From UHGV virus genome UHGV-0093931: DNA of 40,921 nt. One strand, 5' to 3'. The translations under genes were made by a program, and so were the position numbers. Numbering within the stretch: position 1 is the stretch's first letter; the number at the start of each line of letters is the position of its first letter. This DNA is from a virus. A model generated the notes under the pieces. It had not been told where the DNA came from. It searched no databases and saw nothing but the letters and a program-made list of their open reading frames with translations. Below, one piece after another: positions 4,727-40,871 of this stretch.

Positions 4727-4910
4727 CGTTTTCTCCATATTGGCGCGCTGCACCGCGCAGATTTTGGTTGCACGAATCCCTCGCCGGGTGGCGATAATTA
4801 ATGGAATTACGCTTCAATAAATCCCCGCGGTGCCGGGGATTTAATGCAGAGCAATTAGGCTTTAAAGTTACCGATGAAAGTTTCCACTGATTCACCGTCG
4901 AACTTGCTGA

Positions 4911-5681
4911 TCAGCAGATCGCGGAATTCATTGGCGATCTCTTCTTCCTGGGCTTCAAGTTGGACGATGCGCAGAACAAAGCGGGTTCATCGCTGGTCAG
5001 CAGGCTGTTACGCAAGCTAAAACGTCGTTCGCCCAGACCTTCATACGGCACACATTTGAATTCAAACGCCACAGGCATTACGTCTTTGCTGCTTGCTTCA
5101 ACGCTTTGCATCAGCGATTTTTTACCAGCGAAATCACCAGTTTCATGGTCCTGCTGGGTTGCTTGCTGAATAGTGATACGACGCACAGCCTGAGCTGCCT
5201 GGGAAATCTGCATCGTATTGCCATCAGCATCAAACGCCAGCAGGTAATCGCTCCAGTCTTCCAGCCATTCGGCGATTTGCTTTTGCTTCAGACGTTGACC
5301 ATCGATCTGCAGTAACGCGCGGAAGGGCGCGGTTTTCTTCAGGGTGATCGAAGCAACGTTATCGGCGTGACCGGGATTATCCAGGTTGCCGATGTTGAAC
5401 ACTGAACGGGCGGTCATGTTGTCAGCGTCAATGAAGCAACGTGCTGGCTCACTGTCGCTGGCGTAACCTTTAGAATAACGTGCGAAATCGTCAATACTGG
5501 TTGTTGTCATTGCACCACGGAAGCGGAAACGCTCCAGAGAAAAGCGCTCAAGGCTTTCAACGCTAGTACCATCTGGCAGCAATGCGGTCGGGCAAGCCAG
5601 GCCATGAATATCATTCAGGTGGTAGCCAGAAAGGACCAGGTCTTTTACCTGCTGAAATGTACCGCTGTCTAACTGAGACAT
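4911..5681 (-). CDS. YfdQ-like (DUF2303-type) prophage protein, apparently frameshifted near the 3' end
   Basis: 256-aa ORF; a protein-like continuation (...[39 protein letters not shown]) is open in another frame down to a TAA at 4855-4857. Family call is from memory. Confidence 0.6.
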
Positions 5682-35207: not shown

Positions 35208-38200
35208 ATGGCTAAAGAAAAAGTGTTAAAGGGCCGCAAGGGCGGCAGCTCCAGTTCCAGAACCCCTACCGAACAGCCTGATGATCTGCAATCTGTAGCG
35301 AAAGCCAAAATCCTCGTTGCGCTTGGCGAAGGTGAATTTGCAGGACAATTAACCGGCAAAGATATCTACCTGGACGGAACGGCGCTGGAGAACGCCGATG
35401 GCTCCCAAAACTTCAGCGGCGTGACGTGGGAGTTTCGCGCGGGAACGCAGGCGCAAAAGTATATTCAGGGTATTCCCGGTACCGAAAACGAAATCAGCGT
35501 GGGAACTGAGGTATCAAGCGCCACAGCCTGGACGCGAACGTTTACCAATACGCAGCTTTCGGCAGTTCGCCTGCGTCTGAAATGGCCATCGCTTTTCAAA
35601 CAGGAGGACGACGGTGATCTGGTCGGTTACTCGGTCAATTATGCGATTGACCTGCAGACGGGCGGCGGCGCATGGCAGACGGTACTCAATACCAGCGTGA
35701 CCGGAAAAACAACGTCTGGTTACGAGCGCAGCCACCGTATTGATTTACCGCAGGTTGGAAGCACCTGGACAATCCGCCTGCGTAAGATAACCTCTGACGC
35801 CAACAGCGCGAAGATCGGCGACACGATGACGCTGCAGAGCTTCACTGAGGTGATTGACGCCAAGTTACGCTATCCAAACACAGCGTTACTCTACATCGAA
35901 TTCGATTCCAGCCAGTTTAACGGTTCTATCCCGCAGATCTCCTGCGAGCCCCGCGGTCGTGTTATCCGCGTTCCAGATACCTACGACCCTGAAACCCGTA
36001 TTTATAGCGGTACATGGACCGGTGCGTTTAAGTGGGCATGGACGGATAACCCTGCGTGGATTTTTTACGATCTGGTTGTTTCTGACCGGTTCGGCCTCGG
36101 TCACCGTTTGACTGCCGCTAACATCGATAAATGGACGCTTTATCAGGTTGCCCAGTATTGTGATCAGATGGTGCTAGACGGCAAAGGGGGCAACGGTACC
36201 GAACCACGTTATACCTGCAACGTGTACATTCAGGACCGAAACGACGCTTACACAGTCCTGCGTGATTTTGCTGCTATCTTCCGTGGCATGACCTACTGGG
36301 GCGGTGATCAGATTGTTGCGCTTGCCGATATGCCGAGAGATGTGGATTACGCTTACACCCGCGCTAACGTTATCGACGGACGCTTTACCTATTCCAGCAG
36401 CACGACAAAAACGCGGTATACCACGGCGCTGGTTTCCTGGTCTGATCCGGGTAACGCCTATGCAGATGCGATGGAGCCGGTGTTTGAGCAGCCTCTGGTG
36501 GCCCGGTACGGATTTAATCAGCTGGAAATGACAGCCATCGGCTGTACCAGGCAATCAGAAGCGAACCGAAAGGGGCGCTGGGGTATTCTCACCAACAACA
36601 AGGATCGCGTTGTTTCGTTTGATGTTGGCCTGGACGGAAACATTCCGCAGCCGGGATACATCATCGCCGTGTCAGACGAGCTTCTGTCCGGCAAAGTTAT
36701 GGGCGGCCGCATCAGTGCTGTTAACGGTCGCGTGATTAAACTTGACCGCGTAGCTGATGCAGCAGCAGGCGATCGCCTTATTCTCAATCTTCCCTCCGGT
36801 GCGTCACAGAGCAGGACTATTCAGGCGGTTAACGGGGAATCAGTCACAGTCACCACGGCATACAGTGAGACACCACAGGCCGAAGCTGTATGGGTGGTTG
36901 AGTCAGATGAACTCTACGCCCAGCAGTATCGTGTTGTCAGTGTCTCCGATAACAATGATGGTACCTTCTCGATTACTGGCGCATGGCACGATCCGGATAA
37001 ATATGCCCGTATTGATACCGGAGCCATCATTGACCAGCGGCCGGTGAGTGTGATCCCGCCGGGTAACCAGTCGCCGCCTGCGAACATCGTGATCAGCTCC
37101 TTTTCAGTGGTGCAGCAGAATATTAGCGTCGAAACGATGCGCGTGAGCTGGGACCAGGCGCAGAACGCTATCGCCTATGAAGCGCAATGGCGCCGCAACG
37201 ACGGGAACTGGGTTAACGTGCCGCGCAGCTCCACCACGTCATTTGATGTATCGGGTATTTATGCCGGGCGCTACCTCGTGCGTGTGCGCGCTATTAATGC
37301 CTCTGAAATTTCCTCTGGCTGGGGCTACTCCGAAGAGAAAACGCTGACGGGCAAGGTGGGAAATCCGCCGAAACCTGTCGGCTTTGCGACAACGCCGATC
37401 AACTGGGGGATTCGCCTGAACTGGGGATTCCCGGCTAATACCGGGGACACGCTGAAAACGGAAATTCAGTACACCGCGAACAGTGATTTCTCAAATCCCC
37501 TTTTGTTGTCGGATGTGCCTTATCCGTCTGCCGAATACACCCAACTGGGTTTGAAGGCTGGTCAGGAGTTCTGGTACCGCGCGCAGCTGGTAGACAGAAC
37601 GGGTAATGAATCAGGGTGGACCGACTGGGTTCGTGGTGAATCTAATGCGAATGCTGACGACTACCTGGGCGATATTGCTGATGACTTCCTGACATCTGCC
37701 GACGGTGACCGCCTGACCGGCGACATTGATACCAATCTTGAAGCCGCATTGCAGAACGCGCTGGCCAACCATGCAACCGTGGAACACCAGTGGGCGCAGT
37801 ACGGCGAGGTACGCGCGGATATTCTGGTGGTTAAAACGACCATTGCGCAGGTCGATAAGGCCATGGCTGAAATGTCGACGCAGGTGCAGGCGCAGTTCAA
37901 TGATGTGACTGCTGCGCTGGAAGATAAGCTCACCGCCGTGGTTGATGCGACCGGGGCATCTGCAATTTACACCCTTAAAACCGGAGTTCGAATAAACGGT
38001 GTGATGTATAACGCCGGGATGTCGATCGCGGTGCTGGCCGAAGCGGGTAAGCCAGTGGTCACTCGTGTCGGGTTTAACGCAAACCAGTTCGTCCTGATGA
38101 GTGGCAGCGGTGATACGCAATATTCACCCTTTGCTGTTGTTAATGGTCAGGTGTTTATCAGCGATGCGTTTATTCAGAATGGAAGTATAACAAGCGCCAA

Positions 38201-38384
38201 AATTGCTAACGCCGCAATCAACAATGCGAAAATCTCAGGTTCTATCTGGTCAGAAGGTTACAAAGTTGCAAATCAGGGGGGGTGGTGTCTTTCTAAAGCC
38301 GACAACAATCTTTCCTTTACGGGGCCGGAAGGTCGTGTGCTTGTGCAGATTGGTAAACTAACAGGAGTGGCTCCCAATGTCTGA
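35208..38384 (+). CDS. central tail fibre / host specificity protein J-like
   Basis: 1058-aa ORF in the lambda J position after K and I. Confidence 0.85.
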   Translation: MAKEKVLKGRKGGSSSSRTPTEQPDDLQSVAKAKILVALGEGEFAGQLTGKDIYLDGTALENADGSQNFSGVTWEFRAGTQAQKYIQGIPGTENEISVGTEVSSATAWTRTFTNTQLSAVRLRLKWPSLFKQEDDGDLVGYSVNYAIDLQTGGGAWQTVLNTSVTGKTTSGYERSHRIDLPQVGSTWTIRLRKITSDANSAKIGDTMTLQSFTEVIDAKLRYPNTALLYIEFDSSQFNGSIPQISCEPRGRVIRVPDTYDPETRIYSGTWTGAFKWAWTDNPAWIFYDLVVSDRFGLGHRLTAANIDKWTLYQVAQYCDQMVLDGKGGNGTEPRYTCNVYIQDRNDAYTVLRDFAAIFRGMTYWGGDQIVALADMPRDVDYAYTRANVIDGRFTYSSSTTKTRYTTALVSWSDPGNAYADAMEPVFEQPLVARYGFNQLEMTAIGCTRQSEANRKGRWGILTNNKDRVVSFDVGLDGNIPQPGYIIAVSDELLSGKVMGGRISAVNGRVIKLDRVADAAAGDRLILNLPSGASQSRTIQAVNGESVTVTTAYSETPQAEAVWVVESDELYAQQYRVVSVSDNNDGTFSITGAWHDPDKYARIDTGAIIDQRPVSVIPPGNQSPPANIVISSFSVVQQNISVETMRVSWDQAQNAIAYEAQWRRNDGNWVNVPRSSTTSFDVSGIYAGRYLVRVRAINASEISSGWGYSEEKTLTGKVGNPPKPVGFATTPINWGIRLNWGFPANTGDTLKTEIQYTANSDFSNPLLLSDVPYPSAEYTQLGLKAGQEFWYRAQLVDRTGNESGWTDWVRGESNANADDYLGDIADDFLTSADGDRLTGDIDTNLEAALQNALANHATVEHQWAQYGEVRADILVVKTTIAQVDKAMAEMSTQVQAQFNDVTAALEDKLTAVVDATGASAIYTLKTGVRINGVMYNAGMSIAVLAEAGKPVVTRVGFNANQFVLMSGSGDTQYSPFAVVNGQVFISDAFIQNGSITSAKIANAAINNAKISGSIWSEGYKVANQGGWCLSKADNNLSFTGPEGRVLVQIGKLTGVAPNV

Positions 38385-38694
38385 TTTTGGATTTGCCTCA
38401 TGGGACACTAACGGCGTCCCGAATAACTATGGCATTAAACCTGTAACCGTGGTGGGTATCATCGATCTTGCTTTAGGTCAGAAAACGGGAAGCTACCAGT
38501 TCAGTCTGGAGCCTGGTTTAAAGGTTGGTTTTGCGGTTGGTACTCTGGAGGATAAAGGGACAATAAGTTATACAGACAAAAGAAGCATTATTGCATCTGG
38601 AAACACCATAACAATACAGCCTTCAGGTAGTGATGGGATTAATGATTACCCGGCAGTCAAAGTGCAGTTAATCGTTTTTGCGGAGACTGCGTAG
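38377..38694 (+). CDS. hypothetical tail-associated protein
   Basis: 105-aa ORF whose ATG overlaps the J stop. Confidence 0.55.
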   Translation: MSDFGFASWDTNGVPNNYGIKPVTVVGIIDLALGQKTGSYQFSLEPGLKVGFAVGTLEDKGTISYTDKRSIIASGNTITIQPSGSDGINDYPAVKVQLIVFAETA

Positions 38695-39369
38695 ATGGCT
38701 AAATATGGCGCATTGATTTCATTACCTAACGGGAACCCTTTTATCACGCCTGATTCCACACCAATGACGCTTTACCGGAAAGTCACTGTAAACTCAACTT
38801 TTGGAGGGGATTTTAACAGTGCTTCGGCGTCCGTGACTGTCGACGGTCAGAAGGGAGGGATTGCATTTGCACGAACCAGCGCCCCGGCGAAGATATCAGC
38901 TTCAAAAAGTGGCAACACGTTCAGTGTTGATGCGTCTAATTACAGAGGTTCGGCTTTCGTGCTGGAGGCGTATTTTTTTGCTATATATCCGCTCACCCTT
39001 CCTGCCTGGGGTGTGGCTATATGGGATGCCGAAGGGACACTGGTACTTACGAATGAGTCCCGGGTATTAAGCGACCTTACAACTATAGGCTCACCCGGCG
39101 CTGCAACGGGTGGGCTTAACATCGATACATACATGGCAGGCAAATGGGCCGTAAATCCGATGGGGCTGGGGTCTGTTCTTCTGCATGCTGGTTCAGCACC
39201 TGGCGGACAACCAATAATCCAGCCTGTGGATGTGGGAACGGGGTGCTTCAATGAAGGTGTAGGAACAAGAATAAAAGGACTTTCATCAACAACAGCAAGT
39301 GGTTCTTCAGTCGGAACGACGAATAGCGGGATTGTAATAACGGCGATAAACACAGCCGCATATGATTAA
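38695..39369 (+). CDS. hypothetical tail-associated protein
   Basis: 224-aa ORF contiguous with the previous gene; Gly/Ser/Thr-rich. Confidence 0.55.
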   Translation: MAKYGALISLPNGNPFITPDSTPMTLYRKVTVNSTFGGDFNSASASVTVDGQKGGIAFARTSAPAKISASKSGNTFSVDASNYRGSAFVLEAYFFAIYPLTLPAWGVAIWDAEGTLVLTNESRVLSDLTTIGSPGAATGGLNIDTYMAGKWAVNPMGLGSVLLHAGSAPGGQPIIQPVDVGTGCFNEGVGTRIKGLSSTTASGSSVGTTNSGIVITAINTAAYD

Positions 39370-39477
39370 ACCGATCGATTTAAACGATCAATTTAAGAAT
39401 ATTGATCTATTAAAACTATTTTTATTATTCAATGCCATTGGTTATTTTTTGTTTAAATAATTAACTCTGGTGTCGAA

Positions 39478-39714
39478 ATGAAAAATATAATTATTCCAGT
39501 TATTGCCTGTCTGGTGCTTTCAGCATGTTCAGGACCTGTTCTGGAGAAACAGAAACCTGTTTGTCAGGCTGAGTTAGTGGTTGGTGGGCTGCCCCAGTCA
39601 GTGCAGATTTACGGTGTACGAAAAGTTGCAAATCAGACTGAGTACAGAGCCGGTTATCCATTTAACTGGCGATGGGTGAATAAAAATAACTTCACCCGTT
39701 CGAATTGCTCTTAA
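39478..39714 (+). CDS. small lipoprotein, Cor-like superinfection-exclusion candidate
   Basis: 78 aa; signal peptide with lipobox (...LVLSAC-S); AT-rich upstream region; own intrinsic terminator; located just after J, where cor sits in phi80/N15/HK022-type phages. Confidence 0.5.
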   Translation: MKNIIIPVIACLVLSACSGPVLEKQKPVCQAELVVGGLPQSVQIYGVRKVANQTEYRAGYPFNWRWVNKNNFTRSNCS

Positions 39715-39730
39715 TGCCTTACCAAAAAAC

Positions 39731-39755
39731 AACCCGCTCCGGCGGGTTTTTTATT
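39731..39755 (+). terminator. intrinsic terminator
   Basis: AACCCGC-tccg-GCGGGTT followed by TTTTTATT. Confidence 0.75.
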
Positions 39756-39776: not shown

Positions 39777-40871
39777 ATGTCAGCAGGAACCTTAACCCTG
39801 ACGAATAACTCTGCTGCGGTCGCTGGCAGCGGGACCGCGTTTACCACCGAGGTGGCAGCCGGAGATTTTATTGTTGTTACTGTCGGTGGCATTCCCTACA
39901 CGCTCCCGGTTAAATCTGTGGAAAGTGGTACAGCGTTGACGCTGGTCAGTAACTTTACCGGGCCAACACAATCTGGCGCGGCCTGGTCAGCTGTTCCTCG
40001 TGTGGCGCTGAATATGGTCACCGCGGCGCTGGTGGCGCAAAGTGCTGAAGCGCTGCGAGGCCTGAATTACGACAAACAGAACTGGCAGCAGGTTTACAGT
40101 GGTGCTGGCAGCATCACCGTGAAGTTACCGGATGGCACTACATTCACCGGGCCGTCATGGAAATATCTTTCTGACAACCTCGCGGATAAAGTAGACAGCA
40201 AAGATCCCCAACTAGGTACTGTGAATGGGAAAACAGGCGGAACCATTGCCACCCCAGTTTATAGCGTTGGAGCTAGTGGGGTAGTAACTCAGGACTCAAG
40301 TTATGGTGAGTGGTCATTTCTTTATCCATCCACTTTAAAAAAGATGGCCTACGGATTTTGTGAGAATTTTGGTGATCTGGTTTTTGTAACTACCGTTGCA
40401 ACAAATACCGGGACAGAAAAATATTTTGCTATGCGTCAGAACGGTAATTTCAATACACAAGGAAATATTACCTGCGTCTCGCTGAACCAGACTTCAGATG
40501 CCGATAAAAAAAACGACATAAAACCCATTGAAGACGCACTTGGTAAAGTGATGGCTCTAAACGGTGTAACCTTCAACTGGAAGGACAGCGGCCTGCCATC
40601 TTCCGGTGTGATTGCCCAGGAGCTTATAAAAGTCCTGCCGGAGGCTGTCGGATCAGTCTTTGAAGATCATGATCAGTATGAGTCTGTTGAAGAAATCAAT
40701 GCGGGCGGCGAGACGACAATCACCCGTCATCTTGTTAAAAAACGAGATGACAGCAAGCGTAGCTATACGGTGGAATATTCTGGCGTCGTTGCACTCTGTC
40801 TTCAGGCAATAAAAGAATTGAATGAAAAAGTAGACAGTTTGCTGGAACAGTCATCTGCCGTTAAAAATTGA
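39777..40871 (+). CDS. side tail fibre protein with C-terminal intramolecular-chaperone (peptidase S74-like) domain
   Basis: 364 aa; Ala/Gly/Thr-rich N-terminus; C-terminus (...IEDALGKVMALNGVTFNWKD...GVIAQELIKVLPEAV...ELNEKVDSLLEQ) resembles the autoproteolytic chaperone domain of tail fibres/spikes. Confidence 0.7.
   Translation: MSAGTLTLTNNSAAVAGSGTAFTTEVAAGDFIVVTVGGIPYTLPVKSVESGTALTLVSNFTGPTQSGAAWSAVPRVALNMVTAALVAQSAEALRGLNYDKQNWQQVYSGAGSITVKLPDGTTFTGPSWKYLSDNLADKVDSKDPQLGTVNGKTGGTIATPVYSVGASGVVTQDSSYGEWSFLYPSTLKKMAYGFCENFGDLVFVTTVATNTGTEKYFAMRQNGNFNTQGNITCVSLNQTSDADKKNDIKPIEDALGKVMALNGVTFNWKDSGLPSSGVIAQELIKVLPEAVGSVFEDHDQYESVEEINAGGETTITRHLVKKRDDSKRSYTVEYSGVVALCLQAIKELNEKVDSLLEQSSAVKN

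Follow-up and report, generated by a model that had tools for sequence, protein, structure and literature searches.

The virus genome UHGV-0093931, a stretch of 40,921 nucleotides (nt) referred to here as the window, carries near its end a gene for a superinfection-exclusion lipoprotein of the Cor family (39478..39714, + strand). The window is a lambdoid prophage, and this open reading frame (ORF) very probably the cor gene of a Citrobacter freundii prophage; taken as a whole, the observations are best explained, with high confidence, by a Cor-type exclusion gene provided with a cassette of its own. The gene would form an independent accessory unit (a "moron"), having a conserved promoter cassette, predicted from the sequence, on one side and its own terminator on the other. 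The cassette contains a three-GATC array, which resembles known OxyR/Dam switches; control of cor by an operator of this type is proposed more tentatively.

Identification of the cor gene

The product is a 78-amino-acid (aa) precursor, assigned to the Cor family of outer-membrane lipoproteins by the profiles NF047972 and PHROG 1119 and by the annotation of the exact sequence. The 78 codons translate as MKNIIIPVIACLVLSACSGPVLEKQKPVCQ...RSNCS. A lipoprotein signal peptide (residues 1-16), together with the lipobox LSAC, occupies 39478..39528 (+), the codon for Cys17 being 39526-39528; the lipobox boundary reads MKNIIIPVIACLVLSAC, then SGPV... The earlier note on this DNA, made from the sequence alone, had described a 78-aa lipoprotein with this lipobox, and such an ORF is indeed present. 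The lipobox is formed by L14-S15-A16-C17, and C17 aligns with the invariant lipidated Cys of the Cor family. Residue +2 after Cys17 is Ser18, not Asp: since, by the Lol rule, this residue governs the outer-membrane sorting of lipoproteins, sorting to the outer membrane is expected for Cor.

A Cor-type identity had also been proposed, to be checked by homology search. The NCBIfam model NF047972, "phage exclusion lipoprotein Cor" (an equivalog), is matched with 136 bits (E 3e-40, cutoff 31), in an end-to-end alignment of Cor residues 1-77 with positions 1-76 of the 78-position profile. The other profile, PHROG 1119 ("Cor superinfection exclusion protein"), is matched with E 1.3e-25. Pfam is without a Cor family, and the sole Pfam match, to LptE, is sub-threshold. 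In GenBank phages, tblastn retrieves 216 records, nearly all annotated as Cor, with identities of 58% for mEp390 and ES18, 57% for the HK022-type, 55.8% for N15, 54.5% for phi80 and 32% for T1. Similarity to the Cor family, on which the proposal hinged, is clear in profile and tblastn searches alike.

Cys17, Cys29 and Cys77 are invariant in alignments of 52 and 61 homologues, where the core A58-G59-x-P61-F62-x-W64-x-W66 is also invariant or nearly so; EKQxPVC, IYGVRK and AGYPFNWRWV are conserved Cor motifs. In a collection of 5.8 billion proteins the nearest relatives are 95% identical, being described as "cor protein" of Citrobacter, and the sequence falls in a Citrobacter-centred clade. The exact sequence is present on at least 24 contigs, 5.1-Mb chromosomes included, and is named "phage exclusion lipoprotein Cor [Citrobacter freundii]" by both NCBI and UniRef. 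At the DNA level, megablast of the cor module finds no match in GenBank phages, and in E. coli genomes tail-fibre fragments alone are matched. The protein is a full-length member of the Cor family, and its membership is established; it adds one routine member to a known family, and public databases already give it the right name.

Downstream of the gene, at 39731..39755 (+), the intrinsic terminator of the cor transcript is found, as described in the earlier note. It is composed of a hairpin (39731-39748), featuring a 7-bp stem with five G-C pairs and a 4-nt loop, followed by TTTTTTATTA; with an A-run before and a T-run after, it scores on both strands. A hairpin and T-run are kept, at most 60 nt past cor, in 25 of the 28 related loci, from many genera. 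The exceptions are N15 and one relative with an insertion, where the terminator comes further on, and one locus in a different context. The hairpin occurs in several variants: CCCGC/GCGGG, CCGC/GCGG, CCTCGC/GCGGGG (with a G-U wobble) and CCCGGC/GCCGGG, the last differing from CCCAGC/GCTGGG by one compensatory G-C/A-U change. As the terminator is located ahead of the tail fibre gene, lytic expression of the latter must rely on read-through, which Q-type antitermination would supply in lambdoid phages.

A conserved promoter cassette upstream of cor

Between cor and the preceding gene, a gp23-like ORF, lies an intergenic gap of 108 nt. The GC fraction falls from 0.45-0.57 in the neighbouring genes to 0.26 (39350-39449) and 0.21 (39400-39499), in agreement with the AT-rich upstream region of the earlier note. 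That note had the module begin at 39420. Its notion of an own upstream region gains in substance, as the region is more than AT-rich and appears to hold a conserved promoter cassette, but the proposed start splits a regulatory region which begins at about 39371.

The 200 nt upstream of the lipobox codon were aligned for the window, N15, phi80 and 25 genomic loci (28 in total). The most conserved stretch is not coding: the array at 39370-39420 features a mean of 1.14 bits, compared to 0.76 for the end of gp23 and 0.79 for the signal-peptide codons of cor. Its consensus is TGATCGtTtt.a.CGATCAAT-N8-ATTGATCTat..AAtCaATTaT. Three Dam sites, none assigned to a strand, make up the array: GATC1 (39373..39376), at the outer edge of a predicted half-site I, GATC2 (39386..39389), 13 nt past GATC1 and at the inner edge of the same half-site, and GATC3 (39404..39407), at the inner edge of a predicted half-site II. 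Of the 28 loci, 21 share the GATC spacing of 13 + 18 nt; three or more GATCs are obtained in only 0.5% of shuffles of the 140-nt upstream region. The palindrome GATCAAT-N8-ATTGATC has a single copy in the window and a single copy in each of 15 loci, invariably within the array. Elsewhere in the window, three GATCs inside 40 nt occur only at 4909-4936 and at 40651-40671, the latter in the tail fibre gene.

A -10 hexamer of the cor promoter (Pcor), TATTTT, is predicted at 39443..39448 (+), as a TAnnnT located 70 nt past the G of GATC1. Its position was followed in a wider set, obtained by scanning IMG/VR for the motif GATC-N8-CGATCAAT-N8-ATTGATCT, which is found on at least 120 contigs. Among the matches listed, TAnnnT stands at offset 70 in all 80 distinct cor cassettes (as TATTGT in 51), 81% of which also show TG at -15/-14; it stands there in 62% of 26 cassettes with cargo and flanks unrelated to cor, the mean for other offsets being 2.6%. 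Where the cargo is similar to a small RNA (sRNA), the hexamer is found at offset 71 instead, in 89% of 19 cassettes. Because the -10 hexamer lies at 39443-39448, the transcription start site of cor is expected near 39454-39456; the 5' untranslated region would measure about 23 nt and the monocistronic cor RNA about 300 nt. The gap is predicted to hold a promoter cassette, more strongly conserved than the genes which flank it.

Other readings of the array were set aside. The 32-aa ORF which overlaps it (39362..39460) is not a gene: in relatives the frame stops after 5 codons. A phage-wide operator does not fit with a palindrome which is single in the window, where ATTGATC occurs at chance frequency. 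As to an RNA attenuator, based on alternative pairing of the four boxes, ATTGATC changes to AACGATC or ATCGATC without compensation, while GATC remains invariant.

A few relatives depart from the common arrangement. In four loci from Pantoea, Erwinia and Serratia (L024, L026, L027, L028) another kind of array, whose two GATCs are only 9 nt apart (TTCGATCATTTCGATCGATTT, for instance), is located 50-100 nt before cor, and the terminator hairpin is also different. In T1 (L030:1352-1878, minus strand) cor is inverted relative to gp22 and gp23, and its 527-nt upstream region, devoid of the GATC array, contains CTGTTACAC three times, along with two shorter GTTACA/TGTAACA copies: these repeats may be operator repeats of a T1 regulator.

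Other cargos of the cassette

Among the matches listed in the IMG/VR scan, a Cor signature is found downstream of the motif in 73 of the 117 testable viral matches. In all, the cassette was seen ahead of cor in at least about 100 prophages. Several of the remaining cargos are divergent Cor-like lipoproteins (PHROG 1119, E 1.5e-11); others are a different small lipoprotein, small membrane proteins and a 47-aa protein starting with MELTQQEAEL. The cassette, composed of the predicted operator and of a -10 hexamer at a fixed offset of 70 nt, therefore appears portable across accessory cargos.

At L091 (motif at 2534-2569), as well as at L102 and L143, the cargo is a secreted protein of 115 aa, in which a TonB C-terminal domain (Pfam PF03544) is recognised above its cutoff (E 3.4e-15); at L091 its gene starts 107 nt past the first GATC. 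This protein also matches PHROG 1267, "Rz-like spanin", a label which is probably wrong. A periplasmic TonB fragment could be a decoy which shuts TonB-dependent receptors, as a second route to a Cor-like end.

At L054:339-520, at L039, L070 and L075 and at about 16 further viral loci, some 100 nt with two hairpins and a strong terminator, but no ORF, come after the cassette. This cargo (...GCGGCAACATCAGGGAAAGCCGC...GCCCGCATCGCTGCGGGCTTTTTT) looks like an sRNA gene; it matches no Rfam family, and BLAST finds no match in GenBank phages or E. coli.

The array as a predicted OxyR-type operator

The array may be seen as a Dam-sensitive operator of the OxyR type, predicted at 39374..39419 (no strand assigned), where half-site I (39374-39388, ATCGATTTAAACGAT) and half-site II (39405-39419, ATCTATTAAAACTAT) are separated by 16 nt (N16). 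Sites were scored by two copies of the OxyR consensus ATAGxTxxxAxCTAT, allowing 6-8 or 15-18 nt between them. In every case the extended arrangement scores best: N16 with 16/20 (8+8) in the window, N17 with 16/20 in agn43 and N16 with 14/20 in Mu mom. The same scan yields 14/20 for phi80 and 15/20 for locus L011. A compact N7 alternative is also available, with the partner half-site at 39396-39410 (span 39374-39410): scoring 15/20, it is the top consensus match in the 40.9-kb window, where the runner-up reaches 13, and its score is attained by 0.6% of shuffles of the 140-nt AT-rich upstream region. As extended N16 and compact N7 partner sites coexist, a shift of OxyR with redox state is conceivable.

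The placement of the GATCs is shared by agn43, mom, the window, phi80 and L011: two bracket one half-site, and the third is at the inner end of the other. In 98 distinct arrays, among the matches listed, half-site positions lying outside the search pattern are conserved, namely G4, T6 and A10 in site I and T6, A10 and C12-T15 in site II; in the same set the mean half-site scores are 7.7 and 6.7 out of 10, compared to 3.15 for AT-rich background 15-mers.

That Pcor is governed by a Dam-methylation-sensitive operator of the OxyR type, making cor expression methylation-dependent, possibly redox-dependent, and heterogeneous or phase-variable, is given a roughly even chance. OxyR would bind the array as long as the GATCs are unmethylated, Dam methylation would prevent binding, and the resulting state would be heritable; expression of cor would depend on methylation and might be bistable.

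In N15 (L001:4508-4560, upstream of gene 24) the OxyR-like site is kept (14/20) while two of the three GATCs are lost, CGATTGAT and ATATCTAT replacing CGATCAAT and TTGATCTAT. N15 cor has been reported to be expressed in lysogens, and N15 may represent a naturally "locked" form of the switch.

As for the sign of control, there is a slight lean towards OxyR acting as an activator on unmethylated DNA. Two observations point that way: the predicted operator abuts the place of the missing -35 element, as LysR-type activator sites do, and N15, with one GATC and a 14/20 site, expresses cor in lysogens. Repression, on the other side, is suggested by agn43 and mom, where OxyR is a repressor. It is also suggested by P22 gtr, where occupancy of the promoter-proximal half-site (-47 to -33) is reported to be the OFF state.

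Other regulators were compared by hand with the same sequence. A Fur box would be attractive, FhuA being Fur-regulated, but is rejected: the spacing of GATAATTGATC...ATCAATTAT is wrong for GATAATGATAATCATTATC, of which about 7 of 19 positions are matched in the window. An FNR/CRP-type TTGAT-N4-ATCAA is rejected as well, its half-sites being there but 7, 8 and 11 nt apart. IHF (WATCAANNNNTTR) and H-NS are kept as minor rivals, the resemblance, judged by hand, being only partial; for H-NS it is CGATCAATT that is similar to the nucleation motif tCGATAAATT. In the literature searched, outside which most subscription journals lie, no link of cor or its cassette to OxyR or Dam was found.

Comparison with known OxyR/Dam switches

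The agn43 operator is aacGATCAATATCTATTTTATCGATCGTTTATATCGATCGAT, with a GATC spacing of 19 + 13, and the Mu mom operator is cGATCGAATCAATTAAATCGATCGGTAATACAGATCGATTAT, with a spacing of 18 + 13. Aligned on the minus strand, the array of the window is identical to the agn43 operator at 31 of 37 positions, with one gap; the score, 42, was reached in none of 2000 shuffles (maximum 35), and mom and agn43 score 40 by the same measure. The gene agn43 (flu, in E. coli prophage CP4-44) resembles cor in having three GATCs in the same placement and an extended spacing, N17 against N16. The likeness is one of sequence, and OxyR binding and phase variation are for cor a prediction. The two differ in that the agn43 operator is downstream of the transcription start, with OxyR as repressor, whereas the predicted cor operator is upstream, spanning about -81 to -36 relative to the predicted start, and in mirror orientation.

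Mu mom is, like cor, a phage accessory gene, with three GATCs (18 + 13 versus 13 + 18) and N16 half-sites upstream of a weak promoter, and shares with the cor array a core, TTAAATCGATCGGT, identical at 14 of 14 positions. By hand count, the mom operator ends about 41 nt before a candidate -10 (TAAGAT), the cor operator 23 nt before its own. In addition, mom requires the phage activator C; it is unlike cor in cargo and biology.

P22 gtr and Salmonella opvAB are, as cor is expected to be, prophage or horizontally acquired genes which alter phage receptors; their phase variation is brought about by OxyR and Dam. According to published work on P22 gtr, each pair of GATCs, 13 nt apart, falls within a single OxyR half-site; OxyR no longer binds once the DNA is methylated, and the distance between half-sites suits the reduced form of the protein. 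A 13-nt GATC pair is likewise located inside a predicted half-site in the cor array. Unlike cor, gtr features four GATCs in two pairs, three half-sites and alternative ON/OFF sites, while the cor array has three GATCs, one extended site and a compact alternative; phi80, a standard laboratory phage, carries the same three-GATC array as the window. A third half-site 22 nt further, as in the A/B/C arrangement of gtr, is by hand count a poor match.

Predicted receptor and mode of action

The Cor proteins of HK022, N15 and phi80 are reported to protect lysogens from FhuA-dependent phages by inactivating FhuA, and ferrichrome uptake suffers; the molecular mechanism of Cor is described as still not elucidated. 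In published models Cor is similar to T5 Llp, a protein which binds FhuA on its periplasmic side, and the two are assigned to one structural family. A three-gene "extended cor cassette", consisting of gp22, gp23 and cor, is reported to track FhuA use.

The Cor proteins of phi80, N15, HK022 and the mEp phages share with the one described here the profile (hidden Markov model) family, the length, the lipobox Cys, the two further invariant Cys and the motifs, and phi80 and N15 also the gene order and the terminator; the differences lie in the identity, 54-58% for the phi80, N15 and HK022-type proteins, and in the host, E. coli versus Citrobacter.

An AlphaFold2 (AF2) model of Cor, with a mean pLDDT (predicted local distance difference test) of 82.9, consists of a signal helix and, after it, a small beta domain of four strands. 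Among the 50 structural matches listed, the highest target-normalised TM-score (TMt), 0.64, belongs to Llp from its complex with FhuA (8a60_B; TM 0.52/0.64, root-mean-square deviation 2.4 Å, 53 columns, Foldseek E 0.32), in line with the published models. Llp is, like Cor, a small outer-membrane lipoprotein, and inactivates FhuA from the periplasmic side. Unlike cor, a prophage moron, its gene is an early one, beside the receptor-binding protein gene of a virulent phage, and sequence similarity between Llp and Cor is not detected beyond the signal peptide (E 0.57).

That this Cor targets FhuA and acts in an Llp-like manner is a well-founded inference, based on family knowledge and on the C-terminus of the tail protein J, 70% identical to that of N15. 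A beta-rich domain of about 61 aa, probably pinned by a Cys29-Cys77 disulfide, would bind the periplasmic side of the TonB-dependent FhuA, as Llp does. FhuA would become unusable for phages which adsorb through it, including those with the N15-like J tip of this prophage, at the cost of a lower ferrichrome uptake.

Genomic context

The genes around cor are those of a tail region. J, the central tail fibre or tip attachment protein (1058 aa; 35208..38384, +), is matched by the Pfam families FNIII-A_GpJ, Phage-tail_3 and Phage_Tail_Tip. It is followed by a gp22-like ORF (38377..38694, +; PHROG 557, 52% identity to N15 gp22) and by the gp23-like ORF (38695..39369, +; PHROG 425, E 5e-54, 53% to N15 gp23), the first and second gene of the extended cor cassette. 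Past the terminator, after about 20-22 nt, a side tail fibre gene (364 aa; 39777..40871, +; PHROG 1980 and others, Pfam Peptidase_S74) starts, with its own ribosome-binding site. The earlier note had correctly located the lipoprotein between J-associated ORFs and a side tail fibre, and had recognised this arrangement as that of Cor: the order is identical in N15 and phi80, where J, gp22, gp23, a gap of about 110 nt, cor, an annotated terminator and the tail fibre follow one another. The module architecture, of the N15/phi80 type, is already published.

The arrangement is also frequent among relatives. Of 27 genomic loci with Cor relatives, fetched from about 15 genera of Enterobacterales, 24 have J, gp22-like and gp23-like genes directly upstream of cor, the gp23 homologue ending about 107-112 nt ahead of it. 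At L037:1195-2175, which encodes an identical Cor, gp22 has given way to an insertion sequence with a DDE_Tnp_1 transposase and gp23 is cut short by it, yet the promoter cassette, cor and the tail fibre gene are still in place; cor can therefore persist without its gp22/gp23 partners.

Over the head and tail genes the DNA shares about 88-90% identity with E. coli phages CharmingMan, Fraca and mEp235, until about position 37636. Here, within J, is a mosaic joint, where DNA similarity to E. coli lambdoid phages stops (window 37600-38384); the C-terminal 258 aa of J, its receptor-binding end, are 70% identical to N15 gp21 (over 254 aa) and 72% to HK225 J. The tail fibre is mosaic too: its N-terminal 128-140 aa are 88% identical to N15 gp25, while the distal part is unrelated to gp25 and ends in a Peptidase_S74 intramolecular chaperone domain. 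In sister contigs DinI, a UmuD-like peptidase and a host SRAP gene are found downstream of the tail fibre, which places the window nearly at the end of the prophage.

Alternative explanations

A number of observations weigh against the explanation put forward here. At the promoter, the -10 hexamer of the window has GG in place of the TG extension common in relatives, no -35 is recognisable upstream of it, and the Shine-Dalgarno-like GGTG (39469..39472, +, 5 nt ahead of the ATG) is weak, most relatives having GGGA or GGA at the aligned position. In the operator, near-invariant CAAT and ATTG in the spacer are unexplained by the OxyR consensus; moreover, as N15 has one GATC and yet expresses cor in lysogens, methylation control would be dispensable, at least there. 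For the protein, Llp ranks 26th in the Foldseek search, with a non-significant E of 0.32, no structural match being found at E <= 0.001, and a sequence search of PDB with Cor yields nothing significant; some Cor-like proteins are also reported to accompany BtuB-using phages.

The GATC array might be a real regulatory element, yet no OxyR/Dam switch, being instead a site for another LysR-type protein, for H-NS, SeqA or IHF, or a UP-like element, the GATCs being conserved as components of that motif. This is unlikely, though it has to be taken seriously, given the invariant CAAT/ATTG flanks of the spacer, the AT-rich, horizontally mobile nature of the region and the working of N15 with one GATC. 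Against it, the conserved positions (G4, T6, A10, C12-T15) are the very ones specified by OxyR, the best spacer, N16, is in line with two validated OxyR/Dam operators which have their GATCs in the same places, and the agn43 operator is matched (31/37) far better than by any shuffled sequence.

It is improbable that cor is driven by a second promoter, located in the end of the gp23-like gene (-10 TATGAT, 39361-39366), with the operator acting downstream of it as a roadblock, as in agn43. The candidate (39337-39366) has a poor -35, ATAACG, in the window, although in N15 and L005 the corresponding TTGACG-N18-TACGAT/TATGAT is the top-scoring promoter in a position-weight scan of 12 loci; the geometry is also reminiscent of agn43, where TAGAAT lies 5 nt before the first GATC, as TATGAT does 6 nt before GATC1. 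On the other hand, TATGAT encodes the conserved C-terminal Tyr-Asp of gp23, so that its conservation may be due to coding constraint, and it is absent from cassettes with other cargos, which keep the downstream -10 only.

Similarly, there is little probability that Cor blocks a TonB-dependent receptor other than FhuA, either BtuB or a Citrobacter-specific transporter, and that the excluded phages do not belong to the FhuA group. Cor-like proteins are known in BtuB-using phages; these, however, are without the gp22 and gp23 partners, the full gp22-gp23-cor cassette being the one reported to track FhuA. Identity to the characterised E. coli Cor proteins is only 54-58%, within a Citrobacter-centred clade, and J departs from E. 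coli phages exactly at the receptor-binding end; yet, over 254 aa, that same end shares 70% identity with its counterpart in the FhuA-dependent N15.

Finally, it is very improbable that cor lacks a promoter of its own, being transcribed only with the late tail operon across a gap left over as a linker for module exchange by recombination: cor is on the tail-gene strand, joints between lambdoid mosaics are often at gene boundaries and no more than weak promoter matches come out of simple consensus scans of the window, but the -10 hexamer keeps its 70-nt offset despite unrelated flanks (62% versus 2.6%, among the matches listed), the array precedes many different cargos in other phage contexts, cor is expressed from the prophage in N15 and phi80 lysogens, and a terminator directly past cor isolates it.

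Biological significance

The gene call is in itself ordinary: what is added here is a conserved, portable promoter cassette, with the predicted anatomy of an OxyR/Dam switch. It is proposed, tentatively and at rather less than even confidence, that cor, instead of being constitutive, is under a heritable, possibly redox-responsive Dam/OxyR switch, and that this switch is a portable cassette which temperate phages of Enterobacterales reuse for many cargos, among them divergent Cor-like lipoproteins, a secreted TonB C-terminal domain, small membrane proteins and an sRNA-like unit. The signature GATC-N8-CGATCAAT-N8-ATTGATCT, with TAnnnT 70 nt past the first G, could serve to find candidate epigenetically controlled genes in Enterobacterales prophages.

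The Citrobacter prophage probably shields its host, and its own progeny, from FhuA-entering phages, colicin M and albomycin. If the proposed switch exists, lysogen populations would be split into receptor-blocked and receptor-open cells, and resistance to phages, colicin and albomycin would be traded against ferrichrome uptake. Superinfection exclusion by lambdoid prophages would then be a form of bet-hedging, as for gtr and opvAB, instead of a fixed property of the lysogen, and this would affect how the resistance to phages and the iron uptake of lysogens are interpreted, be it in phage therapy or in phage typing.

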